This document shows, piece after piece, positions 27,181 through 58,912 of a stretch of DNA of 64,000 nt. The translations under genes were made by a program, and so were the position numbers. Source of the stretch: a virus; IMG/VR virus record IMGVR_UViG_3300045988_126140, positions 64,001 to 128,000 of that record; one strand, written 5' to 3'. The notes under the pieces were generated by a model. It was given only the letters and a program-made list of their open reading frames with translations. It ran no database searches and was not told where the DNA came from. Within the stretch, counting starts at the first letter, position 1. Every line of letters begins with the position of its first letter.

Positions 27181-27220
27181 TTGTATTAACATAACTCAAT
27201 GATTAATTACTTATAAATTA
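27181..27220 (-). promoter_or_regulatory. class II bipartite promoter-like motif (TAAGTAAT-N15-GTTAATA) inside the terL intron
   Basis: On the minus strand: TAATTTATAAGTAATTAATCATTGAGTTATGTTAATACAA, about 25 nt upstream of the RBS of the intron ORF. Confidence 0.5.
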
Positions 27221-27337
27221 TTAATTATTTTATAAACTTAGCCTTTCTTACCATGTATATCACTATACATTTGACCGATTTTACCCTATTTTAAATATAA
27301 GCACTTATACTTTACTTATATTGAGACATATCTTTTT

Positions 27338-27978
27338 ATCTCCATATTTGATTCTAATGGATAATCTTTATATTCGGGTTTTTCTAAAAACGGAGGTTTT
27401 CTTGGATTTGTTAAGAATTGTTTTAAAACTGAATTTATTACATCTAATTTGATAAGCCTAAATTCATCTGCAACCAATACATTCCCTCTCAAGCCTCTCG
27501 CTCCATCATTAGAAGCTATAGCTGTTATTACAGAACCATTTTTAAATATACATTTAACATTATCTTTATTATTTTGAACTTTTTTAATTTCTTTTGCTAA
27601 CGCAGGGTAATCCCTTCGTAAATCTTCAATCTTTTCGGTTATAATTAATCCTGCCTGGTCTTTGTTACCAGATGCAACTATTATTTTAGAACCTGGATAT
27701 AATATTGCTCTACAACATACAAATATCGCAGTTAGAAATGACTTACCGAGACCACGTGACGCAATAAAGCAGAAACTTGTGCATATATTCATCATATAAA
27801 GTAATATTTGTTGAAACAAATATAAATTAATTCCTAACCAATCCATACAAAATCTATGTGGATTTTTTCTAAAATATTCTGTCCATATTTTTACACCATC
27901 TAATAAATTTTCATATGAATCTTTTTTTAAGTTTTTTCTTTGTTTGCATTTTAATCTATTCTCCATATCCTTTTTCAT
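27338..27978 (-). CDS. terL: terminase large subunit, exon 1 (ATPase half; start uncertain, 27978 or 27966)
   Basis: Walker A-like SRGLGKSF and Walker B VLVADEF are present. The layout LGINLYLFQQILL... is typical of TerL N-termini. Confidence 0.75.
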
Positions 27979-28801
27979 CCTCCTCTGTATAAGGAGTTGA
28001 ATCATTATTTATTAACTTTTTAATAGGATTTAAGAAGTAACGATTTAACCACCATTTAATTCTATCCACATCATCGTATTCTTGGTGGACATCTGGAATA
28101 GGTTCATTTTTTTCTACTTTAGCAATTAATGTACCATAACTTAAATTATCGTCTTCACCATATTTGCTCATTTTAGATGGTAAAACATTTAGTTCTTCCA
28201 TACGTTTAGAAATTTGATTAGTTAAGTTTTCAAATGCTTTTTGGTCATTCTTAACTATAGCTCTTTCTCTTAAAACTTCTAACATACATATTGTTTTAAT
28301 TAAATTAACTTCTTGAATGGCTTTAGACGGATAATTATCTGTGTATTGTTCATATTTTCTTTGGAGTAATTCATACTCATCATCTTGAAATCCCTTACCC
28401 CAAAAGTTAACAATCTCACTTGAAGTAACTGTCTCTCCAGTAATAATATTAGTTACACCATCATAAGTAAGCATATTATCTAAAGATGTTAACCCTTTAA
28501 ATGCTTTATCTCTATTCATTATTCTAGTATAATTACCTAAAAAATTATTGCCATATTTCTCAACACATTTTAGATATGTTTCTTCGTCATAATACATATC
28601 TAAAACCATACATAAATGTATAAATGCTAATCTACGGTCGTTGTTATAATTTTTTAATAACTTTTTAAAATATTTATCAACTACTTCTTTACTCATGGGT
28701 AATTTCTTATCATGCTCATAAAGCATTGATTGTGTAGAGTAGAAATCTCTAACGGTAGGTTTAAATTTACCTGTAGCTGAACATTGTTTTGTGTCTGCCA
28801 T
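27956..28801 (-). CDS. terminase small subunit, putative
   Basis: A 281-aa ORF immediately upstream of terL and overlapping it. Assigned by position only. Confidence 0.45.
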   Translation of the reverse strand: MADTKQCSATGKFKPTVRDFYSTQSMLYEHDKKLPMSKEVVDKYFKKLLKNYNNDRRLAFIHLCMVLDMYYDEETYLKCVEKYGNNFLGNYTRIMNRDKAFKGLTSLDNMLTYDGVTNIITGETVTSSEIVNFWGKGFQDDEYELLQRKYEQYTDNYPSKAIQEVNLIKTICMLEVLRERAIVKNDQKAFENLTNQISKRMEELNVLPSKMSKYGEDDNLSYGTLIAKVEKNEPIPDVHQEYDDVDRIKWWLNRYFLNPIKKLINNDSTPYTEEDEKGYGE

Positions 28802-28956
28802 TATATCACTCTCCTTTAAAATGAAAAAAAATGGTTACGACTAATGGAAGGAGTTTTTAGCCGTAACCTAAAGGGGAGAATTTATTATGAATTTTGAGCC
28901 TTATTTTAAAGACTCAAAAAATACTGATATAATTATCAATATCATTTCAATCCTTA

Positions 28957-28989
28957 AAATAAAAATACCACTCTTATTCGAGTGGTTTA
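28957..28989 (-). terminator. intrinsic terminator
   Basis: On the minus strand: ACCACTCGAATAAGAGTGGT followed by ATTTTTATTTT. Confidence 0.7.
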
Positions 28990-28994
28990 ATTAA

Positions 28995-30122
28995 TTATTC
29001 AACTTTCATTACATAACTTGCAACTACTCCATCTTCATCAAGTATTAATAATGTTTGAGAAGGTTTATTATATAATTTTTTCTTCATAGCATAATCGTCT
29101 GTTGAAATCAAACTACCATTTACATATATATCTGTGTTATATTGTGAAAACATCTTAGGTTGATGATAATGTCCTAATAAAATTAAATCTATGTTTTCAC
29201 CACCTATAACCATAGATAATTCTTCACTTACTTTATTTAAATTAACTTGGTCGCCATGACATGAAACAACTGTATTTCCTTTTACATTCATTACAGATAA
29301 TTCACCATTATTTATCGAATCTAAAAATACAACATTAGATAAATTTAATGTTCTCATTTTTATCATCTCATTTAATAACATAGAGTAATTATTACCATTA
29401 CTTCTATCGTCTTTCATCATTTCTACTGCTTCATGGTTACCATTATTTTGAGTTACAGTTAAATAAAAATAATTTGACAATTTCTCTATTACCTGTGATA
29501 TTATTTCACTAACACTTACTATTTGTTTTACTAAAGATTCTTGATTAGATAGCTTTATACTATTATGTAATTCACCAGATATTAAATCTCCGTTCAATAC
29601 TAAATGCAATTTATCTATGTTATTATCAATACAATGTTCTATTGTTTTATTAATTATTTTATCTAACCTTTCTATAGCTATATCTTTATTATATTTATTT
29701 ACTGAATTTTCTACAATCATAGAAATATGTAAATCGCTTAATATTAAAATTCCGTCTTTTCCACTTGAATCTTCTTTTAAAACATAACGATTTAATAATG
29801 GACTTCTTAAATTTAAATTATTAATTTCTTCTCTTATTAAATCCATTACATTTTCCATCCTAGACAATCCTCTTAATTGTCTATTCACTTCTGTTCTTAA
29901 ATCGGTTAGCTTTATTTTTTCCTTTTTTATTTCAGCTAATGTTTTACTGTCCATGTCATTTTCACTTATAGTTTCAGAATATAATTTAAATCCATATGCT
30001 AATTTTCTTAAATGGTCGTCTGAATAATCTGTTTCGTATTTTCTATTTATATCTTCCCATGACATATCATTTAATTTATTAAGTTTATTTAAACAATCCT
30101 GTATTAATCCCTTTTTATTCAT
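28995..30122 (-). CDS. calcineurin-like metallophosphoesterase
   Basis: The motifs LILSDLH, NGDLISG, GNHE and GHYH appear in canonical order. Confidence 0.75.
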   Translation of the reverse strand: MNKKGLIQDCLNKLNKLNDMSWEDINRKYETDYSDDHLRKLAYGFKLYSETISENDMDSKTLAEIKKEKIKLTDLRTEVNRQLRGLSRMENVMDLIREEINNLNLRSPLLNRYVLKEDSSGKDGILILSDLHISMIVENSVNKYNKDIAIERLDKIINKTIEHCIDNNIDKLHLVLNGDLISGELHNSIKLSNQESLVKQIVSVSEIISQVIEKLSNYFYLTVTQNNGNHEAVEMMKDDRSNGNNYSMLLNEMIKMRTLNLSNVVFLDSINNGELSVMNVKGNTVVSCHGDQVNLNKVSEELSMVIGGENIDLILLGHYHQPKMFSQYNTDIYVNGSLISTDDYAMKKKLYNKPSQTLLILDEDGVVASYVMKVE

Positions 30123-30182
30123 AACATACCCCCCAAAATAAACAAAAAAATAATTGGGAGGCTTTATACCTCCCTTATTTAA

Positions 30183-30374
30183 TTATCTTTCAATAGTATT
30201 TTCTACTTTCAATTTAACATTTTTGTCTCCAACAAAATCAGCGAACAAATCATTAATTGCAAATTTTTCTATATCATAACCGTCTTTATCAGTTTCAACA
30301 ATGAAATATTCACCATCTTCTTCGATAATACGACCTATTTTTATTTCTAATGTTTTTCCTTCTTTAAAAATCAT
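30183..30374 (-). CDS. hypothetical protein
   Basis: A 63-aa ORF with an RBS. Confidence 0.5.
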   Translation of the reverse strand: MIFKEGKTLEIKIGRIIEEDGEYFIVETDKDGYDIEKFAINDLFADFVGDKNVKLKVENTIER

Positions 30375-30396
30375 ATAATCATTCTCCCTTTATTAA

Positions 30397-30702
30397 TTAT
30401 TCACCTTGTATTCTTTTAGCAACAGACTTTTTAAGTCTAACCTTAACAACTTCTTTATCTTCGGTTTTAAAAGGTGTTTCTTTTCCTTCTTTAGTTTTCA
30501 TTACACCTTCTCTACCTTTTTTAACTTTCTTATCTACTAAGAACATTCCTAGAGAAACAGATTCATCAACATCTATTTGTTCATATACAGAAGCTACAAC
30601 ATCTTCTAATGCTTTTAATACTTCTCTAGCTTCTGCCTGTGATACTTTTAGACCTCTTTCTTCTAAAGCTCCTTGTAGTTCTTTTATTACGTTTATTTCC
30701 AT
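30397..30702 (-). CDS. HU/IHF-like DNA-binding protein
   Basis: A 101-aa ORF with HU-like layout: an N-terminal helix pair (..KVSQAEAREVLKALEDVV..) and a beta-arm region (..KKGREGVMKTKEGKETPFKTEDKEVVKVRLKKS..). Confidence 0.6.
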   Translation of the reverse strand: MEINVIKELQGALEERGLKVSQAEAREVLKALEDVVASVYEQIDVDESVSLGMFLVDKKVKKGREGVMKTKEGKETPFKTEDKEVVKVRLKKSVAKRIQGE

Positions 30703-30840
30703 AAAACATACCCCCCTTATAAATTATAAAATATTAATAAAAATAACAAATATTATAGGCTTTTTTAGCCTTACATAAATAATAGTTAATATACTAGGAA
30801 AAAATTAGGATATTTTGCACACTTTTAAAATATATTATTT

Positions 30841-32016
30841 TTATCGACATTTTTTACATATAGATAATAATCCTTTACTTCCGTTTTTATTAAATTTACT
30901 CACCAATTTAACTTTGCCACACTTATTACAACGTTTATATTCTCCTTTACATATATTCAAATAATACCAATCTTCTAATTCTTCTTCATAAGCTTGTACT
31001 ATGTTTTTTACTATTGTGTCTAACATTCCTGTAATTGAAGGAAGTTTTCGATTTAATTCCTTGGCTATATTTTTAATCGTCATACCTCCCATCCATAAAT
31101 CTAAAACTTCCTTCTGTTTATCTGTAAATTTAACTTTCTTTAATACTCGTCCTAAATCGTATAAAATACAATCTATATCCGACGTGAAATCATATGCTTC
31201 AGACTCTCTATATAATTGTAATAAAGGCTTAACATGAGTGACATCTAATGTATCTAAACAATCCCATGTTACCGCCCCATTATCTTTTAATAGTTTTTTA
31301 GGTATGTATAATGGATTATATGAATTTTGAACGTATTCCATATCACTTCTCAAACTACTTTTCATGTAATCACATTTATATTTAAACCATCCTTCATTTT
31401 TATTTTGATTTAATTTTTTATTAATATTATTTTGTAACTCTTTATTTTTCTGTATTTCATTTAAGTGATTTATTAAATCTTGATAACATTGTAATTCTTC
31501 ATGTTCATTTATATATTCTTTATTAATTGTTCTTTTTGGTACTAATTTAATGTTTTGAACCGATTTTAATACAATCATTGGGTCGTCTTCATTTATTTGT
31601 TCACCATATTTATGAATGTAAGATTTTTCTTTTTTCAATGCTCTTTGAAACTCTTCTTCATTATTATATATTTTTAATTTATTCTTTTTCCTATATTCTT
31701 CATCTGGCTGGAGAATATATGTACCTAAGCTTTCTAATAATTTACATACATTACTATCTGTTGCTAAATCTTCGTTTGCATTCGGTGATAAATTTATATG
31801 ACTTCTCTTCTCATTTTTTTGTTCAAATATTTCGTCCCAAAACAGTTCACCGTTTAGTTCTACCTCGTCTATGTATTTTAAATTCAACAATTCTTTTATG
31901 TATTCAATTCTTTCTTCCACAGTTTCTAATTTATATTTATCTTTATCTATCTGATAATCAAATATTGATTTACCATTTATTTTTCCGTAAAAATTATTAA
32001 AGTATATTCGTCCCAT
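30841..32016 (-). CDS. putative late transcription regulator with a sigma-70 region-4/LuxR-type HTH and a C-terminal zinc ribbon
   Basis: FTDKQKEVLDLWMGGMTIKNIAKELNRKLPSITGMLDTIVKNI looks like sigma region 4.2. It is followed by CKGEY..CNKCG...CKKC. It is the first large gene of the minus-strand late block. Confidence 0.5.
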   Translation of the reverse strand: MGRIYFNNFYGKINGKSIFDYQIDKDKYKLETVEERIEYIKELLNLKYIDEVELNGELFWDEIFEQKNEKRSHINLSPNANEDLATDSNVCKLLESLGTYILQPDEEYRKKNKLKIYNNEEEFQRALKKEKSYIHKYGEQINEDDPMIVLKSVQNIKLVPKRTINKEYINEHEELQCYQDLINHLNEIQKNKELQNNINKKLNQNKNEGWFKYKCDYMKSSLRSDMEYVQNSYNPLYIPKKLLKDNGAVTWDCLDTLDVTHVKPLLQLYRESEAYDFTSDIDCILYDLGRVLKKVKFTDKQKEVLDLWMGGMTIKNIAKELNRKLPSITGMLDTIVKNIVQAYEEELEDWYYLNICKGEYKRCNKCGKVKLVSKFNKNGSKGLLSICKKCR

Positions 32017-32051
32017 CTTATATCATCTCCTATTAATTTTATTAATTATTT

Positions 32052-32210
32052 TTACTTCGCATAATTATTTATTTCATCAATTTTATATTCTATCCTTTCT
32101 AAACTCCAACACAATCTTCGTATACATTCCTTACTCCTGCCCTCTTGAATTGCCTGTTTAATTTTTTCCTCCATTTTTATAGCTCTGTCTGTATTAGCTA
32201 CTCTACTCAT
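32052..32210 (-). CDS. hypothetical small protein (52 aa, below the track cutoff)
   Basis: MSRVANTDRAIKMEEKIKQAIQEGRSKECIRRLCWSLERIEYKIDEINNYAK. Found by hand translation; it abuts the upstream stop. Confidence 0.4.
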   Translation of the reverse strand: MSRVANTDRAIKMEEKIKQAIQEGRSKECIRRLCWSLERIEYKIDEINNYAK

Positions 32211-32211
32211 T

Positions 32212-32475: not shown

Positions 32476-32590
32476 TTTTAAGCAATCCTATTTCTTTATT
32501 GAATAACTAATCCTATTTTCAATTAAAAACTCTTAGAAAAGCTCTTATTAGATATTTTAACTATATCTTGTTTAACCACCTCCTATATTA

Positions 32591-32630
32591 GTGTATTAAC
32601 ATTGATGGTAGATAAATTACCTATGAATTA
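32591..32630 (-). promoter_or_regulatory. class II bipartite promoter-like motif
   Basis: On the minus strand: TAATTCATAGGTAATTTATCTACCATCAATGTTAATACAC. Confidence 0.5.
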
Positions 32631-32633
32631 AAA

Positions 32634-33518: not shown

Positions 33519-34718
33519 TTATTTATCCAACCATTTTTTTAAAAGATTCCTCATCCTCTTAGAAGGTATATATAAATTAATTTCTTTTTCTTCTCGTATA
33601 CCACTTCTAAATAACCATTGAATTAATTCTGATAATGACCAAATATCTTCATCTATTTTTACACCTTTATCTGTGAAGAAATTGTTAATTGTAGGTTTAT
33701 AGTATCTATTTATTAAATAGGCACAATTAGTTTTATCTTTATATTCATTTGTCGCTCTACTGTTACAAGGTACAAATCCATTCGTGTATCCTTTACCTTT
33801 ACACTGATTTTTATAATCTTCAAAGCAAGTCCACATATTAAATTGACCCTTTCCTTTAATTATGTGTGTAAAGTAATTGACTGTGTTATTTTTTAATTTC
33901 TTCATCAATTCCTTCTTACTAGATTTATCATACCAACTTTTAGATAGTGCAGTAGTTTTGTCTCCTATATCATTTAATTTTCCTTCGTATATATGTATCA
34001 AACTTTTATATTTAGCACCATTAATTTCTTGATATTCACATAAGTTATAGCTGTCATTAATTTTACTTATTGATTTATATTCATATTCAACATTATTTAA
34101 ATCATAGTAATATCTTTGTACTTGACCTTTAAACATATACGTTAATATGTAAACTTCTTTGAATGCTGTAAATATATTAATTGGAAAAGTCCACAGCATT
34201 AATGAATTATTAAAGAAATATACATCTCCATTTTTAATTGGATTTTTCATACTACTAAATTTACCTTCATATGTATCATCTATCCAATGGGCTTTATTTT
34301 CTTCATCTATTTTGATTATTTTTTCATTTATTAATATTTGAATATCTCGTTTACTTATAGGTATTTGTTCGACAACATCACACACTTCATCTAATATAAG
34401 TATATACTCACCTTCTCGTATGTCATTTATCACTTCTTGACTTAACCCTCTAAATAAAGAATGTGTTGAAATTACGTTATAACCTTCTTTTACAAGTTCA
34501 TAGAAGTGATTTGTCTTACTTCCTTTCCCTAGTTTCTCATTCGGCTTTCTGAACTCTCTATTATCACAAGTTTTAATTACTCTATCTATTTCAGATAAAA
34601 ACGGTGTTATATACATAAATCTTTCAAATAGTTCATTATTCATATATTGTATTGCAAACGAAGTCTTACCGTACCCACATGGCGCATCAACTACTGTTAT
34701 TTTACATTGATTTTTCAT
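33519..34718 (-). CDS. P-loop NTPase, SF2 helicase-like
   Basis: Walker A is DAPCGYGKTS and Walker B/DExx is ILILDEVCD. Confidence 0.55.
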   Translation of the reverse strand: MKNQCKITVVDAPCGYGKTSFAIQYMNNELFERFMYITPFLSEIDRVIKTCDNREFRKPNEKLGKGSKTNHFYELVKEGYNVISTHSLFRGLSQEVINDIREGEYILILDEVCDVVEQIPISKRDIQILINEKIIKIDEENKAHWIDDTYEGKFSSMKNPIKNGDVYFFNNSLMLWTFPINIFTAFKEVYILTYMFKGQVQRYYYDLNNVEYEYKSISKINDSYNLCEYQEINGAKYKSLIHIYEGKLNDIGDKTTALSKSWYDKSSKKELMKKLKNNTVNYFTHIIKGKGQFNMWTCFEDYKNQCKGKGYTNGFVPCNSRATNEYKDKTNCAYLINRYYKPTINNFFTDKGVKIDEDIWSLSELIQWLFRSGIREEKEINLYIPSKRMRNLLKKWLDK

Positions 34719-34720
34719 AA

Positions 34721-34990: not shown

Positions 34991-35123
34991 AATACCACTC
35001 CTTTTTATTAATTATTTTTGATAATGCTTATATTTTTTATACAATCCATATAACACTAATGTATTTTAAATGCTTTATCTTTTCTCATACATTCATGGTC
35101 TACCACCTCCTTTCTTATATTAC

Positions 35124-35163
35124 TATATTAACGAAATTATATTAAAAATTACCTATGATTTTA
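35124..35163 (-). promoter_or_regulatory. class II bipartite promoter-like motif
   Basis: On the minus strand: TAAAATCATAGGTAATTTTTAATATAATTTCGTTAATATA. Confidence 0.5.
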
Positions 35164-35379
35164 TTTCTTTTTATTTTTAATTATAGCGTCGTGAATTACT
35201 ACTATCATTATTAGTATAATCATAGGAAGAAACATAATTCCTGTTAATGTTATTATAAAAGCTACCTCTCCAAATGCTTCACCAACTATAACTGAATATT
35301 TTAAAGCTTTAAATAATATAAATGCAGTTATCACAGCTCCTGATAATGTTGCACTATTTTTACCAGCATATCTCCACAT
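35161..35379 (-). CDS. small membrane protein
   Basis: A 72-aa ORF with two hydrophobic segments. Confidence 0.55.
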   Translation of the reverse strand: MWRYAGKNSATLSGAVITAFILFKALKYSVIVGEAFGEVAFIITLTGIMFLPMIILIMIVVIHDAIIKNKKK

Positions 35380-35410
35380 AATATCAACTCCTTTTTATTT
35401 ATTTCTTATT

Positions 35411-35451
35411 TATGTATTAACATAACTGTATCAAAAATTACCTATGAATTA
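35411..35451 (-). promoter_or_regulatory. class II bipartite promoter-like motif
   Basis: On the minus strand: TAATTCATAGGTAATTTTTGATACAGTTATGTTAATACATA. Confidence 0.5.
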
Positions 35452-35533
35452 CAAAAAATATGTATGTCCTCCAAGATTTTTATTAAGCTTCTTTAATACC
35501 ATTACAAAAACACTCCGAATATATGTGTTATTT

Positions 35534-35575
35534 TATATAATTAACAACTAATAATGAAAAATTACCTATGAATTA
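35534..35575 (-). promoter_or_regulatory. class II bipartite promoter-like motif
   Basis: On the minus strand: TAATTCATAGGTAATTTTTCATTATTAGTTGTTAATTATATA. Confidence 0.45.
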
Positions 35576-35667
35576 CATTATTTTTAATATATATAGTATT
35601 TAATTTAGTATTTAATAGTATTTAGAGTGCCTATATATGTTGATATCGCTTGTATTCAGACTATTAT

Positions 35668-35861
35668 ATATGAGTTTTAAAGGTTTTAATATGTGTTTTT
35701 AAGGAACAAATATGTTAAATTAAGTATTATTTCATTTATAAATATGTGTTTTTAAGGTTATTTTATTTCCTTAATTACTCATAATAATTTTAAATATGTT
35801 AAAATAAGGGACTATTAATATGAGATATTAAGGGTTATAATATAACTATGAGAAATTAAGG
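35668..35861 (+). repeat. iteron array upstream of rep (6-7 copies of about ATATGWGNTTTTAAGG)
   Basis: ATATGAGTTTTAAAGG, ATATGTGTTTTTAAGG (twice), ATATGTTAAATTAAG, ATATGTTAAAATAAGGG, ATATGAGATATTAAGGG and CTATGAGAAATTAAGG. They are preceded at 35593..35627 by three tandem AGTATTTAA units. Confidence 0.75.
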
Positions 35862-35870
35862 AGGTTTAAT

Positions 35871-36827
35871 ATGAGCAAAAATCAAATACTTATGAAAAAT
35901 AATACAATAGTTAGTGCTAGATATAACATATCTCTTATGCATAATAATATATTTATTTTCATATTGTATAAACTTCAGAAAGCTAAGTCTGGTAATGCAT
36001 ATTGTTATATAAGCAAACAAGAATTTCAAAATCTTATTTCAAATAAAACACAGAAAACAGTTCCAGGTATTAAAAAAGTATTAGATAATATGCTAGATGA
36101 AAAAATATATTTTAGAGAAGATGGTGAGTGGAGCTGTAAATATAGTATTATAGCTGGGTATGAATATAATAAAAAAGAAGATTTATTTAAAATAGTTGTC
36201 ATTGATAAAGTTTATCATCTTCTTATGAATTACAAAGCTTATACACCTATTAATATGAAAATATTTTTAACTTTAAAATCAATATATAGCCAAAGATTAT
36301 ATGACCTTCTTAGATTATGGAGTAATACAAAAGAAAATATAACATATGAACTAGATGAATTAAAAGATTTGTTAATGCTAAATAACAAATATAATTTGTA
36401 TGCTGATTTTAAAAGAAATGTTCTTCAACGAGCTAAAAAAGAATTAAATAATACTGGAATGTTTGAATTATCATATACCGAAAATAAAAAAGGACGAAGT
36501 GTAAAGTCTATAACATTTCATGTGAAAGATTTAGATAAAAGAGTATATTTTAAAAAGAAACAAACTGAACAAATTTCGCCATTGTCATACATTTCTAATA
36601 AGGATTTAATATCAAATGATTGTATATCATCTTTTCAAAAAGATTTTGAACTAATAGATTTCACATACGAAGATATGAATCAAGCTTTTATTGAATCAAT
36701 TAATATAACATTATCTAAATTTAATGTAGATAAAATAGATTATAATGTATATCCTTACTTTAAAGCTGTGTTAAATAATAAAATTAAGTATTATACTGAC
36801 TTATTTATAAAGACAAGTATTTTTTAA
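35871..36827 (+). CDS. rep: plasmid-type replication initiator, Rep_3 family
   Basis: The N-terminus NNTIVSARYNISLMHNNIFIFILYKL and the later LKSIYSQRLYDLLRLWSN...ITYELDELKDLLML..KYNLYADFKRNVLQRAKKELN follow the Rep_3 pattern as I remember it. Iterons lie upstream. Confidence 0.75.
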   Translation: MSKNQILMKNNTIVSARYNISLMHNNIFIFILYKLQKAKSGNAYCYISKQEFQNLISNKTQKTVPGIKKVLDNMLDEKIYFREDGEWSCKYSIIAGYEYNKKEDLFKIVVIDKVYHLLMNYKAYTPINMKIFLTLKSIYSQRLYDLLRLWSNTKENITYELDELKDLLMLNNKYNLYADFKRNVLQRAKKELNNTGMFELSYTENKKGRSVKSITFHVKDLDKRVYFKKKQTEQISPLSYISNKDLISNDCISSFQKDFELIDFTYEDMNQAFIESINITLSKFNVDKIDYNVYPYFKAVLNNKIKYYTDLFIKTSIF

Positions 36828-39364: not shown

Positions 39365-39920
39365 GGTATTTCAATGGTTTGATACGGTAAACTAAGGAGT
39401 TTATATAGATAAATTAATACGTAGTGGGGAGTATATTATGTCCAATTAACACCGTATTTTCCCATTTATTTCCAATATATTAAATATACTATTAAATTCC
39501 CATTAAATCAAGTACTAATTTATAAACGTAAAATAACATATTTATGATACCATTTCCCGAGAATAAGCACAACATAGAAACATTTAATTTTAATACTTTT
39601 AAATTAGGCAAAATGAAGTATAACAAAAACGTATTAATTTCCTAGTATTCTTGATTTGCAAATATGGCTATGTTGCAAATATAGGAGCTTGTAGGAATTG
39701 CTAAAAATCTAATTCGGTATTTTTTACGACATGTAGTTGGTAAACTACTACACAGAATAAAATTTTTGTCAAGCCCCTCCGAATATGATACCACCCCCTA
39801 GATGTTGAAATATCAACATTTCTTACCCTTTGAAAAAAAATTCCTTCTCCAAAAAGTGTGATTAAGTATTAATTAATCGTACATTCTTAATTTTTTAAAG
39901 TGGTTGACTTGTCCAGAATT

Positions 39921-39984
39921 CTAGTTGTCTACAAGCATTTTGCTAGTTATCCACAAGTATTTTGCTAGTTATCCACAAGCTGTT
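39921..39984 (+). repeat. three tandem 22-bp repeats, each carrying a DnaA box
   Basis: The repeat is CTAGTT(G/A)TC(T/C)ACAAG(C/T)ATTTTG. Perfect TTATCCACA boxes lie at 39947..39955 and 39969..39977. A variant, TTGTCTACA, lies at 39925..39933. A fourth perfect box lies at 40134..40142. Confidence 0.8.
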
Positions 39985-40081
39985 AATATGTATAAATATA
40001 TATACGAAGGCAAGTATTACCAATACTTACAATTACATTTACAACTACATCTCAAGCTAACAACCTATAAGTCTATATAAT

Positions 40082-41315
40082 CTAGTAATATCAACGCTTT
40101 CATACACTTATACACTTTTTTTCTTAATCTAAGTTATCCACAAGTAAAATTTTTCTAATTTTTTCATTTTACATTTTTTACCATTTATTCAATTTCCCCT
40201 AATAATCTAAAGTAATTTGTCTATTTTCCTTTATTTTCCTAAAGCGTCTACACTAAAATGTTCTACGGTTTACCTTTATTACCCAATACTATACAACCGT
40301 TGCAATAACTGTATCCTATACCTATAGTGGGTATATTGTAAAGCGTGAAACGGTTGAAACTGCTACATTCTTCTGTTTTCTTCTATTTGTGTATACCTAT
40401 GTATGGTATTCAATCCTAGTTATATCAACACTTCTATTGTTTTCCTTTGCATTTTCCTAAAGCTTACAACCGTTGATAATGCTAGATAGTTAATAAATAT
40501 ACCTATGATAATTAAGATAATAAATCATAATGTTAATTTACATTAATTAATTAAACTATTCTCTTCTGTTCTCTTTACTATATAAACCATGCATATATTT
40601 TGTCGAATACTCTAAAGCTAGTAATATCAACAACTACAGTATTTTATAATAACTTTACAATATAAAACAATCTTTATATTTTCCCTAATTAAATAAAGCT
40701 AATCCTTGATTTACCTTAATATTTTAAAGGAGATATTATCATTCTGCTTTATTTAATTAAGTTAAACTTATTAATTAATACCAACTTTATTTATTAAACT
40801 TTAAAATCAATTTTAAAATGGAGTATTCCATAAAAATAATTTTGTACTATATACTTTTTTATAGCTTTACTAAAATAAGTATATAGTACTATTCACTTTA
40901 ATAAAATTCGTGACCCTATTTTCTACTATCAATAAGTAAAGTATTCGACATAATGCACTTTACTTATATAAAGTATTCGACACTTGCTTTCACTATATCA
41001 ATTATTTTTTATGTAAGAATTATCTAATATGATACAAATATATTTTAATATATAAATTATTTTTTATGTAAAGAATTAATTATTTAGAGGGCGTAAACTT
41101 TAATAAATAAAGTGACCATATTTTTTACTATCACTTTTTAAAGTAAAACTTGTCGAACACTTTAATAATTGACTGTGGAGTCTATCAATTGCCTTGTTTT
41201 TTAAAGTGTTAATTGTCGGACTATCATATAAATTTATTTTTATGTAAAAATTTAATTTTATAATAAGAAAATCCAACACAACTAAAATATAGCTTAAACT
41301 GTTGATATTACTAAC
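40082..41315. repeat. nested repeat region (candidate origin/partition locus)
   Basis: CTAGTAATATCAAC-type sites lie at 40082, 40416, 40618 and, inverted, at 41301. GTATTCGACA lies at 40941 and 40973 and, inverted, at 40601. TATTTTTATGTAA occurs three times between 41012 and 41258. TTTTCCTAAAGC..ACAACCGTTG occurs twice. Two degenerate units of about 200 bp lie at 40899-41095 and 41098-41260. Confidence 0.7.
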
Positions 41316-41415: not shown

Positions 41416-41467
41416 ATAAACATAAACAACAACAAAAAAATAATTAATAAAAAATTAAAAAAAGTTG

Positions 41468-52839: not shown

Positions 52840-52911
52840 AAAATAATTAATAAAAATAATTAATAAATTTTTTAAAAGCTCTTGGCAATGATAGTAAAAA
52901 TAATTAATAAA
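52840..52911 (+). repeat. cluster of three copies of the 15-mer AAAATAATTAATAAA
   Basis: Copies lie at 52840..52854, 52853..52867 and 52897..52911. This is an example of a motif found about 45 times in the window. Confidence 0.9.
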
Positions 52912-52930: not shown

Positions 52931-53713
52931 ATGATGGGGAAAAATATTAATAGAATAGGAGAGAGAAATATAAATACATTTGGAAGTGAAATGGTTATAG
53001 TAGAATATAGAATGAATAGAGATATCGACGTTTATTTTCCAGAATATGACTGGACTTTTAAAAATGCGAGATATGAAACTTTTAAAAAAGGAAACATTAA
53101 ATGTCCTTATGATAGAAGTATATATGGTGTTGGTTACATTGGTGAGGGTAATTATAAGGTAAGTGAAAATCGCAAACTAACTAAAGTTTATAGCACTTGG
53201 CAAAGCATGCTACAAAGATGTTATAGTAATAAATTTCATAAGAAACAACCTACTTATATTGGTTGTGATGTTTCTGAAGAATGGCATAATTTTCAAAACT
53301 TTGCCAAATGGTATTATGAAAATTATTATGAGGTAGAAGGAGAAAAAATGCATTTGGATAAAGATATTTTATATAAACATAATAAGATATACTCTCCTAG
53401 GACTTGCATATTTGTACCTCAAACTATTAATGGTTTATTTATTAAAAGGGATAATAATAGAGGTAAATCAGTTATAGGGACAACGCCTCGTAAAAATGGT
53501 AAATATCAAGTAAAATGTTGTTTAATAAATCCAGAAACAGGTAAGTCTAAATATGAATATTTAGGGATTTATGACACACAAGAAAAAGGGTTTAAAATAT
53601 ATAAGTATTATAAAGAGAAAAATATTAAACAAGTTGCTGACTATTACAAAGATTTAATACCATACAAATTATATCAAGCTTTATATGAGTATGTTGTTGA
53701 AATAGATGATTGA
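52931..53713 (+). CDS. homing-endonuclease-like protein, paralog 1 of 5 (HNH-like core plus AP2-like C-terminal domain)
   Basis: The family signature is G(E/K)...N.FGSEM.I..Y, then Y.TW..ML.RCY...(F/S)..K.PTY..C.V..EWHNFQNF..WY, then LDKDIL.KHNKIYSP.TC.FVPQ.IN, then GKYQV.C.L.NP.TGKS...YLG.YD....AF..YK.YKE. Confidence 0.55.
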   Translation: MMGKNINRIGERNINTFGSEMVIVEYRMNRDIDVYFPEYDWTFKNARYETFKKGNIKCPYDRSIYGVGYIGEGNYKVSENRKLTKVYSTWQSMLQRCYSNKFHKKQPTYIGCDVSEEWHNFQNFAKWYYENYYEVEGEKMHLDKDILYKHNKIYSPRTCIFVPQTINGLFIKRDNNRGKSVIGTTPRKNGKYQVKCCLINPETGKSKYEYLGIYDTQEKGFKIYKYYKEKNIKQVADYYKDLIPYKLYQALYEYVVEIDD

Positions 53714-54367: not shown

Positions 54368-54437
54368 TAAAACTGTTGACAAATGATAGTGAAATATGAT
54401 ATAATTAATGATATAAAACATAAGGAGGTTGGTAATT

Positions 54438-54920: not shown

Positions 54921-55085
54921 AAGAACTAAAATGATGACAAATAATATTAATTGATAGGCTAGATTTTATTCTAGTCTATTCTTTTATAGTTCAAAAAGAT
55001 TGTAAAAATTATTAATAAATCTATTGACAAAATATACCATATGATATATACTTATACATATATAAGATATTAAAGGGAGGAAAAG

Positions 55086-55988
55086 ATGATGGAAAAAGTT
55101 AATAATATGGAAAGATTAATAAATAATTATATAGCATACTTGAAGGATATAAAAAACTTATCACCTAAAAGTATTAAATCATATATTCCAGTAGTAAAGG
55201 AAATGATTGAGTATTGTGGATTTAAAAGAATAGATGATATACAAAATTCTACTATAATCCAATTACAAAATTGGTTAAACAAAAAAAGAAATGAAGGATT
55301 ATCTAATCAAAGTCTTAACAGAAGGATAGCTAGTTGTAAATCATTTTATGGTTATCTATGTGCATTTAGGATTATTGATTTTAATGCTAGTAAGGAACTT
55401 AAACAATTAAGAATTGAATCTAAAGGTAAAATAGGAAACACAGGACAAGTTGACAAAATAAGAACTTATTTAGAATCTGAATATAATAGAAAACCTAATT
55501 ATATGAATATGAGAAATAGATTGATTGTTGAAGTCATGCTTAATTGTGCTTTAAGAAATTCAGAGCTTAGACAATTAAATATAGATAGTATCAATCCCAA
55601 TACTGGAGAATTTACAGTTATCCAAAAAGGCGGGACTAGGAAATCTTGCGTGTTATCTAGTAAAACATTACAACTATATAATGAATACATGATAGAACGC
55701 AACAGAATCCCTTCTAAGGATAATTCTCTATTTCTTAGTAGTTATAAGAGTAGAATAAGTATTGGTGGCTTAGAAAAGCTTATACACAAGATAACAGAGG
55801 TTACAGGACAACAGTTAAATCCCCACGATTTACGTCATATTTCAGCTACAAAATACGTGGAAGCTGGATTTAGTTGTGATGAGGTCGCAAAGTTACTAGG
55901 GCACTCAAGTAGTAATACAACCTTCAGATTTTATTATCACCAAGATAATGACAATAAAAAGAAAATGGTTGAAAATACATGGGATTAA
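55086..55988 (+). CDS. tyrosine recombinase (XerC/D / phage integrase family)
   Basis: NCALRNSELRQL (Arg box) and HDLRHISATKYVEAGFSCDEVAKLLGHSSSNTTFRFYYH (H-x-x-R, H, Y) are present. Confidence 0.8.
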   Translation: MMEKVNNMERLINNYIAYLKDIKNLSPKSIKSYIPVVKEMIEYCGFKRIDDIQNSTIIQLQNWLNKKRNEGLSNQSLNRRIASCKSFYGYLCAFRIIDFNASKELKQLRIESKGKIGNTGQVDKIRTYLESEYNRKPNYMNMRNRLIVEVMLNCALRNSELRQLNIDSINPNTGEFTVIQKGGTRKSCVLSSKTLQLYNEYMIERNRIPSKDNSLFLSSYKSRISIGGLEKLIHKITEVTGQQLNPHDLRHISATKYVEAGFSCDEVAKLLGHSSSNTTFRFYYHQDNDNKKKMVENTWD

Positions 55989-55991
55989 TTT

Positions 55992-56031
55992 TAATTCATA
56001 GGTAATTTTACTTAAAGTTATGTTAATATAA
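55992..56031 (+). promoter_or_regulatory. class II bipartite promoter-like motif
   Basis: TAATTCATAGGTAATTTTACTTAAAGTTATGTTAATATAA lies upstream of paralog 2. Confidence 0.5.
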
Positions 56032-56131
56032 TGATAACAATTAATAAAGTGGATAAAGTTTTGTTGTGTCACAATTAAAAATAACGTTACTTATCCTCTT
56101 TATTAAATTATAATATAAAGGAGGAGATATT

Positions 56132-56944
56132 ATGGGAAGAAAATCAATAAATAGAACAGGGGAGAAAGGAATTAATAATTTTGGAAGTGAGATGATAATT
56201 GTTAATTCTTATATGAAATTCAATGATAAATATAAAAGAAATTATACTTATGTAGACGTTTATTTCCCAGAGTATAATTGGACTTTTAAAGGTGTAAGAT
56301 ATGAGAGTTTCAAAAATGGTAATGTCAAATGCCCATATGAGAGAACTGTGTTTGGAATAGGTTATGTTGGCGAAGGAAAGTATAAGGTAAGTGAAAATGG
56401 CAAAGACACTAAGAGTTATAATACTTGGCGTAATATGTTGCAAAGATGTTATAATGAAAAATGTCAAGAGAAAAATCCAACTTATAAAGGTTGTACTGTA
56501 TGTGATGAGTGGCATAATTTTCAGAACTTTGCGAAATGGTATGAAGACAATTATTATGAGATAGAAGGTGAGAGAATACATTTGGACAAAGATATTTTAT
56601 GTAAAGGCAATAAAATATATACTCCAGAAACTTGTGTTTTTGTACCACAGACAATTAATATGTTATTTACTAAAAGGCAAAATGATAGAGGGGAATCAGT
56701 TATTGGAACAAGCTATCATAAAAGAGATAAAAAATATCAAGCATATTGTAGTTTAATTAATCCTAAAACTGGTAAATCTAAAGATAAATACTTGGGATAT
56801 TATGATACAGAAATAGAAGCATTTGAGATATACAAATATTATAAAGAACGTAATATTAAACAAGTAGCTGATTATTATAGAGATTTAATACCAGAAAGAT
56901 TATACATGGCATTGTATAATTATGAAGTTGAAATTACAGACTAA
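56132..56944 (+). CDS. homing-endonuclease-like protein, paralog 2 of 5
   Basis: It carries the same signature as 52931..53713. Confidence 0.55.
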   Translation: MGRKSINRTGEKGINNFGSEMIIVNSYMKFNDKYKRNYTYVDVYFPEYNWTFKGVRYESFKNGNVKCPYERTVFGIGYVGEGKYKVSENGKDTKSYNTWRNMLQRCYNEKCQEKNPTYKGCTVCDEWHNFQNFAKWYEDNYYEIEGERIHLDKDILCKGNKIYTPETCVFVPQTINMLFTKRQNDRGESVIGTSYHKRDKKYQAYCSLINPKTGKSKDKYLGYYDTEIEAFEIYKYYKERNIKQVADYYRDLIPERLYMALYNYEVEITD

Positions 56945-56982
56945 AATTGACTATAAAAATAATTAATAAAGGAGATGATAAT

Positions 56983-57792
56983 ATGAGTAACAAAGTACAA
57001 AAATTATTTGATAAATTAGTAGAAAAATATAATATGAGAGCAATAAAAATAGGTGATGAAACATGGTATGCGATGAACGATTTACCATTAGATAGAAAAG
57101 CAATAAACAGAAAAATGAGTGACCTTAGAAAAAACTTATCTGGTAACGGTGATTTTAAATATACTCCAAACTTTGTAGAGCAAAACACAAGATTAATAAC
57201 AAATTCAACGGTGATTTTAAATCACCTTAGAAATTTTGATAAAGTTCATAATACAGGAGAAATGTTTGGTAACTTTACAATGATAAATTACATAGTTATG
57301 ACAAGTAGACTTGGACACGAATATAAAATAGAAATGATAAAAATTTTAGACGAAATAAGAAAAAATGATTTCTATGTAGATGACAATATATCAAAAGAAC
57401 AATTAAACTCGCTTCAGAACAAAGTTAATAAACTAAAAGATAGATTACATTATGAAAGACGTAGAAAGGCTTACGGGGCTACTCAAATAGTTAAAAAAAT
57501 AAATATAGATAATTTGTTGCCAAGTACATTATTTAGATACCTAGATGAATATTTGAATTTAGGAGATTATATAATAGTAAATAAAAATAGAAGATTTAGA
57601 CCTAATGATAATTTTGTTAACAAATGTGCTGATTTAGGTGTAGTCAGAATTGGAGTAAACAATAATATAATATTCTTTAGTGAATTTGCAGAACAAGTAA
57701 ATAGAAACAAAGACATCCTTAATATATTGAAAATAATTAATAAAGAAGAATTACAAATAAGAGAAAAGGGAATTGAAAACAGAATTAAATAA
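56983..57792 (+). CDS. antirepressor-like protein (Bro-N/KilA-C-like)
   Basis: The start MSNKVQ sits behind AGGAG. NMRAIKIGDETWYAMNDL and a C-terminal KilAC-like stretch give weak motif support. Confidence 0.45.
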   Translation: MSNKVQKLFDKLVEKYNMRAIKIGDETWYAMNDLPLDRKAINRKMSDLRKNLSGNGDFKYTPNFVEQNTRLITNSTVILNHLRNFDKVHNTGEMFGNFTMINYIVMTSRLGHEYKIEMIKILDEIRKNDFYVDDNISKEQLNSLQNKVNKLKDRLHYERRRKAYGATQIVKKINIDNLLPSTLFRYLDEYLNLGDYIIVNKNRRFRPNDNFVNKCADLGVVRIGVNNNIIFFSEFAEQVNRNKDILNILKIINKEELQIREKGIENRIK

Positions 57793-57803
57793 TCATTGCT
57801 TTC

Positions 57804-57831
57804 AAGAGGTTTTATACCTCTTATTTTTTTT
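57804..57831 (+). terminator. intrinsic terminator
   Basis: AAGAGGTTTTATACCTCTT followed by ATTTTTTTT. Confidence 0.75.
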
Positions 57832-57973
57832 GCTTTATTTTCAAAATAATTAATAAATTATGAATATTTAAACTCCATTTTGTATATAATATAGTAAAGA
57901 AAATTAATAAAAAGTAGTTGTCATTAAGGATATCATATGTTATACTAAGCAAGACAACTAAGAAGGAGTTAAA

Positions 57974-58846
57974 ATGAAAAAAATGTGTGATAAAAAAATT
58001 AAAATGGACAGAATGGAAAATAGAGTAAACGATTTAATTAATGAAATAGGTGAAAAAAATATAAATGAAGAAGTGATAAAAGATTTTGCTATAAAAAATT
58101 TAAAGACAATTAATAGAAGTAGTTTCTACGATGGATTTAGAATTTTAAAAGAAGTATTAGATACAAAGGGAATTAAATACGATTTAAAAGAAGATGAATT
58201 AATGGAAAAATGTTTATATTTTGACGAATCTAAATACTTCACAAAAACTCAAATATTAGATATAATCAATTCACTTATAAATGCACAAGACAAATTATTA
58301 ATATACATGATATTTAATAAAGTATTAGGTAAGAAATTCAAAGACCTATTAGAAATTAAGGTTTCTGACGTAGCCGAAGACTATAGTTATATAAATGTAA
58401 ATGGAAATAAAATACTATGCGACGATATAATGAAAGAGTTAGTTAAAGACACAATAGAACAAGAAGTATATGTTAATACAACAAGAAGTAGAAACGTACT
58501 TTATTATGATTTAAATATGAATAGTGAATATTTATTCAAGACATTATGTAATAGATATACCAATAATGGTTTAGAACCAATGAAACGTAGTAATTTAAGT
58601 GGAAAATTAACTGTTTTAACAAAAGAATTACAACATGGAGGATTAAATGTTACCTTAACAGCTACAGGAATATATCAGTCTGGAATCATGTATGACATGT
58701 TTGTATTGCAAGTATTAGATAATATTATATGGACTATACAAAATACAAAGAGCTATCTTGATATAAATGGATATAATATGAATGCCAATGAATTAACCTA
58801 TAAATATCACCATTTATATTATGGAACGAACTCTTCAAGAAATTAG
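57974..58846 (+). CDS. hypothetical protein, possibly a degenerate integrase-fold protein
   Basis: A 290-aa ORF. Its layout recalls tyrosine recombinases (..LLIYMIFNKVLGKKFKDLLEIKVSDV..), but the catalytic R/H/Y residues are not evident. Confidence 0.5.
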   Translation: MKKMCDKKIKMDRMENRVNDLINEIGEKNINEEVIKDFAIKNLKTINRSSFYDGFRILKEVLDTKGIKYDLKEDELMEKCLYFDESKYFTKTQILDIINSLINAQDKLLIYMIFNKVLGKKFKDLLEIKVSDVAEDYSYINVNGNKILCDDIMKELVKDTIEQEVYVNTTRSRNVLYYDLNMNSEYLFKTLCNRYTNNGLEPMKRSNLSGKLTVLTKELQHGGLNVTLTATGIYQSGIMYDMFVLQVLDNIIWTIQNTKSYLDINGYNMNANELTYKYHHLYYGTNSSRN

Positions 58847-58873
58847 AGGTTTTTCTCTAGTTTCTTTTTTTTT
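58844..58873 (+). terminator. intrinsic terminator
   Basis: TAGAGGTTTTTCTCTA followed by GTTTCTTTTTTTTT. Confidence 0.7.
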
Positions 58874-58912
58874 GTTTATAGGTAATTTTTCAATACTAAT
58901 TGTTAATATATT
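58874..58912 (+). promoter_or_regulatory. class II bipartite promoter-like motif
   Basis: GTTTATAGGTAATTTTTCAATACTAATTGTTAATATATT. Confidence 0.45.

Follow-up and report, generated by a model that had tools for sequence, protein, structure and literature searches.

A conserved bipartite intergenic element, a putative middle promoter class, in a family of large plasmid-like gut phages

The middle promoters of the Bacillus phage SPO1 are read by a phage sigma factor, gp28, and have the -35 sequence AGGAGA and the -10 sequence TTTNTTT. In phage T4, middle promoters combine a MotA box with a sigma70 -10 element and are used together with AsiA, and both intron-encoded and free-standing homing endonucleases have private middle or late promoters. 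Among Firmicute ECF sigma factors, sigmaW provides an example of promoter architecture, TGAAAC-N16-CGTATA. The group-5 clostridial sigma factors TcdR, BotR, TetR and UviA use promoters with -35 TTTACA and -10 GTTATA or GTTAAT, and an SRQ motif in region 4.2 is a marker of the group (PMC4031146). In SPbeta, a 15-bp repeated intergenic element, SPBRE, serves as a binding site for MrpR, a repressor with a recombinase fold (PMC10516654).

Here we describe an intergenic element that recurs in a ~133.5-kb SPbeta/phiCD211-like plasmid-phage, of which a 64,000-nt stretch ("the window") was analysed. Judging from the DNA sequence, we give a somewhat better than even chance to the explanation that the repeats form a phage-specific middle promoter class, probably read by a small phage-encoded sigma factor. 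So understood, the element is a new instance of a well-known kind of phage gene control.

Copies of the element in the window

A search for TARGTAAT-N15-GTTAAT returned exactly seven matches in the window, compared with 0.04 expected from 100 shuffles (at most one per shuffle). These are the same seven sites, with invariant 15-nt spacing, that a preliminary description of the window had listed, and the shared flanks given there (TTCATAGG..., ...ATGTTAATAYA) were also correct; one copy carries the variant TAAGTAAT. The seven sites score 46-55 bits on a position-weight matrix built from them. Because a scan of the whole window, repeated at a threshold of 10, found nothing else above 12 bits, we conclude that the window holds no weaker copies of the motif. 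The sites are as follows.

27171..27221, minus strand: site 1, ATAATTTATAAGTAATTAATCATTGAGTTATGTTAATACAATAATATAAAA (pattern match 27185-27213), in the terminase intron, 28 nt 5' of the ATG of the intron homing endonuclease gene (HEG)
32581..32631, minus strand: site 2 (pattern match 32595-32623), heads an operon encoding 87-aa, 52-aa and 391-aa (regulator) proteins
35113..35163, minus strand: site 3 (pattern match 35127-35155), 5' of the genes for an 89-aa membrane protein and a 399-aa YonV_C-like P-loop protein
35402..35452, minus strand: site 4 (pattern match 35416-35444), 36 nt 5' of a 72-aa membrane protein gene (35161-35379)
35526..35576, minus strand: site 5 (pattern match 35540-35568), the first left-arm site, adjoining Rep3 iteron-like repeats and with the -10 variant GTTAATT
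55991..56041, plus strand: site 6 (pattern match 55999-56027), begins 3 nt past the stop of an integrase-like gene, 5' of an HNH HEG
58871..58921, plus strand: site 7 (pattern match 58879-58907), 5' of a sigmaA-type promoter (58972-59000) and an HNH HEG

All seven lie between ORFs and are aimed at the downstream gene, an orientation that had been noted before; where a stop codon precedes a site, it lies 6-11 nt before it. A Shine-Dalgarno-like element and a 3-codon ORF directly follow site 3 on its 3' side, and site 7 begins 5 nt past the terminator (58837-58866) of an MrpR-like gene. Extending the motif search beyond the window, as had been proposed, yielded an eighth copy on the same contig (L023:17309-17349), 5.3 kb past the window end. 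Four further features behind or around these sites are relevant.

33519..34718, minus strand: 399-aa YonV_C-like P-loop protein, its gene part of the operon that follows site 3
56132..56944, plus strand: HNH homing endonuclease (phrog_953), behind site 6
59062..59838, plus strand: HNH homing endonuclease (phrog_953), behind site 7 and the sigmaA-type promoter, in a cassette flanked by terminators
25921..27336, minus strand: intervening sequence that interrupts the terminase large subunit between residues 210 and 211, with a seamless split (tblastn query: the intact 582-aa TerL of L017)

The intervening sequence holds site 1 and an HEG (26176-27156), which are nearly identical in the relatives L018 and L021 and missing where TerL is intact (L017). 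With three of the seven window sites preceding HEGs, the copies could be passive hitch-hikers of mobile HEG cassettes that share no regulatory role. We regard this as very improbable. Of the window's five paralogous HNH genes, three are without the motif, orthologous sites share the boxes and not the surrounding sequence, and most sites in the family precede non-mobile core genes (polymerases, NrdD, helicase); this client list already largely refutes hitch-hiking. HEG cassettes that bear such a promoter would follow from the promoter class and do not compete with it as an explanation.

Conservation, anatomy and client genes in the phage family

The motif is matched by more than 112 IMG/VR stretches, mostly ~114-140-kb contigs of one family, and each relative has at least 12-13 copies, counted in ~35-45% of its genome. 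When a 20-base version was run in one strict scan against representative genomes of 185,579 species, only three stretches matched; given this near-absence, the motif is not a host regulon. Most likely, its use is confined to one family of large, uncultivated, plasmid-like phages of the gut.

Across the family, the element reads A-tract, CATAGGTAATTTT, N10, TGTTAATAY, TAATATAAG and then, at a fixed distance, a Shine-Dalgarno-like element, for a total of ~55 nt. The two boxes and 15-nt spacing of the preliminary description were thus sound, but the element is longer than described there, since the third block TAATATAAG and the Shine-Dalgarno-like element belong to it. The 15-nt spacing is present in 170 of 183 box pairs. 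With the T of TAGGTAAT numbered as position 1, the boxes of 111 unique sites are 90-100% conserved and spacer positions 13-22 are near background; conservation outside the search pattern includes A at -4 (95%), T23 (91%), A30 (92%) and the TAATATAA block (77-95%). GTTAAT is 97-100% invariant, and the TG proposed earlier as part of an extended -10 does precede the -10-like box (positions 23-24; T in 91% and G in 99% of sites). In loci fetched via the 391-aa protein rather than via the motif, the orthologous site 2 keeps both boxes while eight spacer positions vary, and at orthologous sites generally conservation is limited to the boxes.

No TTGACA-like hexamer was found in the motif sites, in line with the earlier remark that the upstream half is unlike this housekeeping sigmaA -35 sequence. 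The right arm contains ~25 sigmaA-type promoters, and the early promoters use TATAAT or TATACT. The proposal of a promoter-like class distinct from these was supported, as the boxes and the 15-nt spacing are kept in many related genomes and the spacer varies.

If the element is a promoter, its -35-type box would be cATAGGTAATTTT and its -10-type box TGTTAATAY, with an A-rich, UP-element-like tract at about -16 to -8. The non-conserved spacer would separate GGTAAT and GTTAAT by 15 nt, which is equivalent to AGGTAA-N16-GTTAAT. Transcription would start near A38, in the region TAATATAAG, and the Shine-Dalgarno-like element would occupy positions 40-45. With a start at this point, an unusually small gap of 2-7 nt would separate it from the Shine-Dalgarno-like element.

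Of 128 family sites, 115 run in the same direction as the coding strand, and the next start codon lies either 22-40 nt or 80-150 nt away. The client genes encode a DNA polymerase III alpha-like protein, a second DNA polymerase, NrdD, a Sak4-like protein, a DnaB-like helicase, methylases, homing endonucleases (one in the terminase intron) and the 391-aa regulator operon, with no structural genes among them. Replication-type clients without structural genes fit a middle promoter class. The gene set drawn up earlier for the window was correct, including the intron-encoded nuclease, but its emphasis on "maintenance" did not carry over to the family, where the clients serve mainly replication, recombination and nucleotide metabolism.

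Repeated intergenic DNA might also serve as a repressor operator, for example for the MrpR/YopR-like protein encoded at 57974-58846, in the way SPBRE does, or as some other non-promoter DNA or RNA signal. The SPbeta precedent (PMC10516654) and the presence in the window of a protein with an MrpR_C_cat domain would be consistent with this, as would the direct repeat formed by GGTAAT and GTTAAT, 21 bp or two helical turns apart. However, the ~55-nt element is strictly transcription-oriented and lies at a fixed distance from the Shine-Dalgarno-like element, a bipartite form with a fixed-length, non-conserved spacer is the signature of sigma2/sigma4 recognition, and the motif precedes lytic replication genes at no fewer than 12 places per genome. 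Length, strict orientation and bipartite form argue against an SPBRE/MrpR-type operator as the main role, and we consider this explanation improbable. An operator could overlap the promoter without replacing it.

As a proposed middle promoter class, the element invites comparison with those of SPO1 and T4. As in SPO1, a candidate phage sigma-70-family protein would be made from host-sigmaA early promoters and would read a private bipartite promoter, and it serves replication genes together with regulators of the class that follows, the logic being that of a cascade. Unlike in SPO1, a virulent myovirus, the present system belongs to an uncultivated temperate-type plasmid phage; its boxes are unrelated to those of SPO1, and it encodes two ECF-sized paralogues (190 and 196 aa) together with a 391-aa HTH protein. 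The resemblance to T4 lies in a phage-specific substitute for the -35 next to a -10-like element, and in HEGs, one of them in an intron of an essential gene, that would carry a phage stage-specific promoter. In contrast to T4, no MotA or AsiA homologues were seen, and the -10 departs from the host consensus at its key last position in half of the sites.

Candidate readers of the motif

The preliminary description named two candidate cognate factors, the genes at 63594 and at 30841..32016. Of these, the first is the better candidate for a reader, and a third candidate, better conserved, lies outside the window.

30841..32016, minus strand: 391-aa regulator (phrog_5767, "sigma factor"), downstream of site 2, carrying an HTH of LuxR/sigma-region-4 type and, at its C-terminus, a zinc ribbon
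63532..63560, plus strand: sigmaA-type promoter TTGACT-17-TATAAT, in front of the 196-aa sigma gene
63594..64000, plus strand: N-terminal 135 codons of a 196-aa sigma-70-family protein, ECF-sized with sigma2 and sigma4, the remainder lying past the window end

A 190-aa paralogue of the 196-aa protein is encoded 300 bp further on, just outside the window. Both are members of the sigma-70 family. TIGR02937 (sigma70-ECF) matches to P0121 and its orthologues extend across both domains, residues ~5-189, with scores of up to 62 bits in orthologues compared with a cut-off of 42.9, and Sigma70_r2 scores 22-23 bits in the small sigma proteins, just below its cut-off. When an AlphaFold model of the 196-aa protein was searched with Foldseek, sigma factors made up nearly all of the 50 best hits, at E-values of 0.018 or worse. 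The TTGACT-17-TATAAT promoter places the 196-aa gene in the early class. These two proteins, the early-expressed 196-aa sigma and its better-conserved 190-aa paralogue, are the best candidates for readers of the motif. Across genomes in which the motif is unchanged, identity ranges over 65-92% for the 190-aa protein, 40-93% for the 196-aa protein and 42-100% for the 391-aa protein. The 196-aa sigma is weaker as a reader because it diverges to ~40-55% identity under an unchanged motif. Since all motif-bearing genomes belong to one phage family, co-occurrence of the motif and the small sigmas carries little independent weight.

Like ECF systems, the element has two short boxes ~16 nt apart (AGGTAA-N16-GTTAAT) and the proteins have regions 2 and 4 only, with TIGR02937 matches; unlike them, it shows no AAC/CGT signatures, no anti-sigma gene is evident, and the regulon is a phage gene class. 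The likeness to group 5 consists of the -10 hexamer GTTAAT, identical to that of the BotR-type promoter PorfX1, the low-GC Firmicute setting, the size and make-up of the sigmas (~180-196 aa, sigma2 and sigma4 only) and the location of their genes on mobile elements. On the other hand, the -35 here is ATAGGTAAT, with no TTTACA at the corresponding position, and region 4.2 has no SRQ, reading VSSTNVNKK and VSSVTINKK. BLAST gave no similarity of the small phage sigmas to plasmid-borne members of the group-5 family. In region 4, the 196-aa protein reads EISKMLGVSSTNVNKKVNRI and the 190-aa protein EISKTLNVSSVTINKKINLI. It is a speculative and rather doubtful idea that the small sigmas are phage-borne relatives of TcdR, BotR and UviA that kept a GTTAAT-type -10 and acquired the new -35 ATAGGTAAT, and that the two paralogues, their region 4 being near-identical and their region 2 divergent, share a single -35 but serve different -10 classes.

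The 391-aa protein might itself be a sigma factor that reads the motif and so drives both its own gene, in a positive autoregulatory loop, and the replication genes. It was found in every family locus examined, its match to PHROG 5767, annotated as a sigma factor, is full-length (E 2.5e-73), and a fold search gave weak Foldseek hits to whole sigma factors, none of them a confident whole-sigma match. Against this, the HTH is its only recognisable domain, and searches of Pfam, NCBIfam and PDB sequences turned up no sigma region 2. Sites 5, 4, 3 and 2 come first in the left arm, all ahead of the 391-aa gene, so that the reader is more simply placed elsewhere; every promoter-like site 5' of the gene on that strand is the motif, leaving no independent source of the first 391-aa molecules visible. 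In addition, genomes with 391-aa copies only 42-50% identical have an identical motif, yet L019 has a copy 62% identical and no motif. The gene occupies the yonO position of SPbeta, at the head of the structural genes, which suggests a late role. The 391-aa protein is more likely a target of the motif than its reader, and we hold the autoregulatory loop to be unlikely.

Another way to read the motif would be sigma appropriation, or class-II activation, where host sigmaA reads TGTTAATAT as an extended -10 and a phage protein on cATAGGTAATTTT stands in for -35 recognition, much as MotA/AsiA do in T4. The activator could be the 391-aa protein, whose HTH is confidently of the LuxR/sigma-4 type, or a small sigma-like protein. 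The conserved TG is in keeping with this, and the -10 can be read as TG-n-TAATAT, TAATAY matching TATAAT at four of six positions. Moreover, the C. difficile phage LIBA2945 has TTGACA-17-TGTTAATAT 5' of its orthologue of the 391-aa gene, indicating that this -10 can go with a canonical -35. However, sigmaA has a near-absolute requirement for T at -7, and 48% of sites have C (46% have T) at the last -10 position; the early promoters of this same phage use TATAAT or TATACT. T25, which as the "n" of TGn would be free to vary, is kept in 97% of sites, and the octamer is near-invariant, beyond what a sigmaA -10 needs; furthermore, the motif also precedes the 391-aa gene, which varies while the motif stays constant. 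Appropriation of sigmaA thus seems to us a real but minor possibility.

Under the preferred explanation, a phage-specific middle class, right-arm early genes would be transcribed by host sigmaA polymerase from TTGACA-17-TATAAT promoters, and their products would include the 196-aa (63594) and 190-aa sigma-70-family proteins. One or both of these may redirect host core polymerase to the motif, switching on genes for replication, recombination and nucleotide metabolism, the HEG cassettes, the small membrane proteins and the 391-aa operon. The structural genes would then presumably be controlled by the 391-aa regulator from its yonO-like position.

Meaning for the phage family

Through its -10 half, the element connects a putative phage promoter with clostridial toxin regulation, from which the unusual GTTAAT/GTTATA -10 is known. 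If kinship with group 5 is true, the family would be a natural experiment in the re-wiring of sigma specificity and would hint that toxin sigma factors arose from phage middle-gene regulators. If a cognate sigma is confirmed, the pair may offer an orthogonal promoter/sigma system for low-GC Firmicutes. Because the consensus is sharp (~20 informative positions) and was near-absent from representative bacteria in one strict scan, it can be used for annotating transcription units in related contigs.

HEG cassettes, one inside the terminase intron, would carry the phage's own stage-specific promoter. For widespread uncultivated ~135-kb plasmid-like phages, known from metagenome assemblies apparently from gut, the element contributes to a regulatory map in which sigmaA-type early promoters, a private class for replication genes and HEGs, and a separate late regulator would form successive layers.

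Seven copies of a bipartite element and their phage setting

The promoter-like element TARGTAAT-N15-GTTAAT matches the window exactly seven times, compared with 0.04 times in shuffled sequence. The preliminary description had listed seven copies at these places, each oriented with the gene downstream; this held, and all seven matches lie between ORFs and are aimed at the downstream gene.

Exact pattern matches to TARGTAAT-N15-GTTAAT in the window
27185-27213, minus strand, site 1
32595-32623, minus strand, site 2
35127-35155, minus strand, site 3
35416-35444, minus strand, site 4
35540-35568, minus strand, site 5
55999-56027, plus strand, site 6
58879-58907, plus strand, site 7

With a weight matrix built from these sites, their own scores were 46-55 bits, and the rest of the window never exceeded 12 bits. 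Natural box variants are TAGGTGAT, GTTAATT, and GTTAAA; a second class pairing the ATAGGTAAT box with another -10 was not seen in the window. Site 7 begins 5 nt past a terminator, and its endonuclease cassette closes with another.

PHROG and Pfam matches identify the window as part of a large siphophage. Genes for tape measure, portal, protease, and terminase are found in the left arm (1 to ~41 kb, minus strand), along with members of the SPbeta 'Yon' families (YonB, D, G, J, V). A Rep3 initiator and iteron-like repeats occupy the middle. Besides small early-type genes, the right arm (41.5-64 kb, plus strand) encodes an anti-repressor, a methylase, proteins resembling an integrase and MrpR, and five paralogous HNH homing endonucleases. 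ENA contig ERZ28662998 scaffold_26 (133,562 bp) is identical to the window across 11,951 bases and has a ParM-like gene past the window end, and we therefore consider this a plasmid-type phage. The iteron-like repeats (CCTTAAAAACACATAT and variants, 35576-35870) adjoin the Rep3-family initiator gene (35871-36827), and, taken with the ParM-like gene, indicate plasmid-type maintenance. Among cultured phages, the closest relatives are phiCD211 and LIBA2945, 'big plasmidial' siphophages of C. difficile, whose protein identity is no more than 30-35%; when 10 kb of the window were compared with cultured phages by megablast, there was no match. Scans of the window for tRNA and with Rfam at gathering thresholds found none.

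Several other features were observed. The 1.7 kb between the divergent arms (39627-41300) has no convincing ORF. At 57974-58846 (plus strand), a 290-aa protein with an MrpR_C_cat domain is encoded, with a sigmaA-like promoter before it and a strong terminator after. An IS605-type OrfB/TnpB gene (phrog_506; 13766-15004, minus strand) sits amid the tail-gene region, and the adjacent 170 nt (13595-13765), which are GC-richer and structured-looking, may be a guide RNA; in the related stretch L016, a TnpB lies immediately behind the orthologue of site 2. An identical hairpin, GTTCGCAATTTAAAAATATTGCG(AAC), stands right after two tail-region genes (~11498-11524 and ~8721-8746, minus strand).

Conservation and full consensus of the motif

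An independent set of relatives was obtained by retrieving loci through homologues of the 391-aa regulator (30841..32016, minus strand) rather than through the motif. At these loci the sites occupy orthologous positions, with identical boxes and varying spacers. An IMG/VR scan with 15-nt spacing returned more than 112 matching stretches, mostly from contigs of ~114-140 kb that belong to one family; the readable ~35-45% of each genome holds 12-13 copies. The same scan with 14-nt spacing returned only single chance matches plus one natural 14-nt variant, in the related stretch L013, and the boxes are 15 nt apart in 170 of 183 pairs. The relatives LIBA2945 and L019 are without the motif.

Conservation was then scored over 111 unique sites at positions that belonged to no search pattern (numbered from the first T of the upstream box). 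Upstream, positions -16 to -10 are A-rich, with A at -4 in 95% and C at -1 in 76%; T23, in 91%, places TG ahead of the -10-like box, A30 is present in 92%, and a third block, TAATATAA at 34-41, is 77-95% conserved. In 110 of 140 sites (background, 20%) a Shine-Dalgarno-like element begins between positions 40 and 45, and it is carried by 60 of the 74 sites whose next real gene is more than 45 nt off. These conserved positions outside the pattern, together with the Shine-Dalgarno-like element, thus define a longer, full consensus: A-tract, aattCATAGGTAATTTTt, N10, (a)TGTTAATAyA, n, TAATATAAG, SD.

SPbeta has an SPBRE/MrpR operator system, MrpR being its recombinase-fold master repressor (PMC10516654). 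A similar operator role may be overlaid on our element, but it would not account for an oriented, bipartite element whose distance to a Shine-Dalgarno-like sequence is fixed. When representative genomes covering 185,579 species were scanned with a 20-base version of the motif, only three stretches matched: two belong to a single Firmicutes MAG, both small contigs, and the third is likely a chance match; the motif is no host regulon. We conclude that this promoter-like class is real, strongly conserved, and private to the phages, and consider it likely to be a promoter.

Early promoters, client genes, and intervening sequences

About 25 promoters in the right arm consist of AAATAATTAATAAA and, shortly after it, TTGACA and TATAAT spaced by 17-18 nt, a layout that fits host sigmaA. 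Here AAATAATTAATAAA is UP-element-like, 4-16 nt upstream of TTGACA-17/18-TATAAT. With at most one mismatch it occurs 58 times in the window versus 2.8 expected, 57 of the 58 co-oriented with transcription (for example, 41438-41451, 52841-52867, and 63503-63516, plus strand; 3167-3180 and 35004-35017, minus strand); other copies immediately precede Shine-Dalgarno sequences or lie at gene ends.

As had been proposed, the upstream half of the motif is unlike TTGACA, and no TTGACA-like hexamer is present. The main rival to reading by a phage sigma resembles T4 MotA: host sigmaA would act on TGnTAATAT, with a phage protein at -35. Consistent with this, the 391-aa orthologue of LIBA2945 (L145, 19650-19700) is preceded by TTGACA-17-TGTTAATAT, which is the motif's -10 octamer with a canonical -35. 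The last T of the sigmaA -10 is essential, whereas the matching motif position is C in 48% of sites; moreover, compared with the sigmaA early promoters, the motif's -10-like octamer is nearly invariant. Promoters of the sigmaH type read RWAGGAXXT-N14-HGAAT, and reading by host sigmaH was rejected, because the spacing falls short by about 3-4 nt and bacterial genomes are essentially free of the motif. A late-promoter candidate, TTTCCTAGTATA, is conserved upstream of a 101-aa gene; it does not recur in the window above chance, and thus did not reveal a late promoter class.

Of 128 sites across the family, 115 share the orientation of the coding strand. Behind them lie genes for a DNA pol III alpha-like protein, a second DNA polymerase, NrdD, a Sak4-like annealing protein, a DnaB-like helicase, methylases, a YonV-like P-loop protein, small membrane proteins, and several endonucleases, as well as the 391-aa operon; no structural genes were found behind the motif in the family. 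This list is as expected of a middle (replication) class.

Site 1 lies within a 1416-bp intervening sequence (25921-27336, minus strand) that seamlessly separates residues 210 and 211 of the terminase large subunit and encodes a 326-aa homing endonuclease, the site being just upstream of that gene. A relative with an intact terminase gene lacks both insert and site, and relatives sharing the endonuclease have the same site. No Rfam intron model matched the intervening sequence, probably because of its 1-kb ORF insert. Relatives differ in what lies within or next to the split terminase gene: a GIY-YIG enzyme, LAGLIDADG-like proteins, or nothing. A group I intron match (RF00028; 19144-19519, minus strand; 49.9 bits where the gathering score is 50, E 1.4e-11) falls in the capsid-module region, between a YonB-like ORF (19481-20374) and the ORF at 18266-18886.

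The motif precedes only two of five HNH paralogues lying within 11 kb; the other three are preceded by AAATAATTAATAAA copies only.

HNH homing endonuclease genes (phrog_953)
52931-53713, plus strand
56132-56944, plus strand
59062-59838, plus strand
61091-61867, plus strand
62720-63502, plus strand

From site 2 to the first gene of the 391-aa operon runs a leader of ~115 nt (32476-32590, minus strand) that is highly conserved in relatives and holds a direct repeat, TAAGAGCTTTTCTAAGAG; it may be a regulatory leader.

Candidate readers and a possible cascade

Two factors had been put forward as readers, the protein encoded from 63594 and the 391-aa protein, of which we retain the first. This 196-aa protein (P0121) matched the sigma70-ECF superfamily model over both domains, nearly all the best structural matches to its AlphaFold model were sigma factors, with weak E-values, and its gene is preceded by TTGACT-17-TATAAT. 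A 190-aa sigma-70-family paralogue is encoded 300 bp beyond it, about 500-1070 bases past the window end (12447-13019 of the continuing contig L023), and is preceded by a 68-aa Cys-rich ORF. The two proteins are 37% identical, with an almost identical region-4 helix-turn-helix (EISK.L.VSS..NKK.N.I.D.I.EIKNN) and differing region 2. Their orthologues score above or close to the TIGR02937 cut-off, and both genes are present in the family contigs covered at that region. Across genomes in which the motif stays the same, conservation is highest for the 190-aa protein (65-92% identity, compared with 40-93% for the 196-aa and 42-100% for the 391-aa protein). PDB sequence searches with the small sigmas gave nothing informative; tblastn with the 190-aa sigma gave no match among cultured phages and, in plasmids, nothing beyond weak matches to sigmas in general.

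The 391-aa protein is probably a target of the motif and a late regulator rather than its reader, since its only recognisable parts are an HTH of LuxR/sigma-4 type and a zinc ribbon, and since site 2 precedes its gene, which heads the structural genes in the place that belongs to yonO in the SPbeta gene order.

The motif geometry (AGGTAA-N16-GTTAAT) and the size of the small sigmas resemble ECF systems. Group-5 promoters of BotR/TcdR have a GTTAAT/GTTATA -10 and a TTTACA -35, and the group's sigmas carry an SRQ motif in region 4.2 (PMC4031146). The -10 hexamer is identical to the motif's GTTAAT, but neither the -35 nor the SRQ is matched, and the system therefore does not belong to that group. 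We lean slightly towards one of the small phage sigmas as the reader.

The most economical scheme would be a cascade in which sigmaA early promoters act first and yield the small phage sigma or sigmas; these would activate the motif, the motif would drive the 391-aa regulator, and this regulator would turn on the late genes. The same logic applies at the middle promoters of SPO1 gp28. A text search of the literature for the motif strings returned no paper describing it and nothing relevant. Stage-specific phage promoters with a phage sigma are a well-known kind, to which this motif, undescribed by that search, would add.
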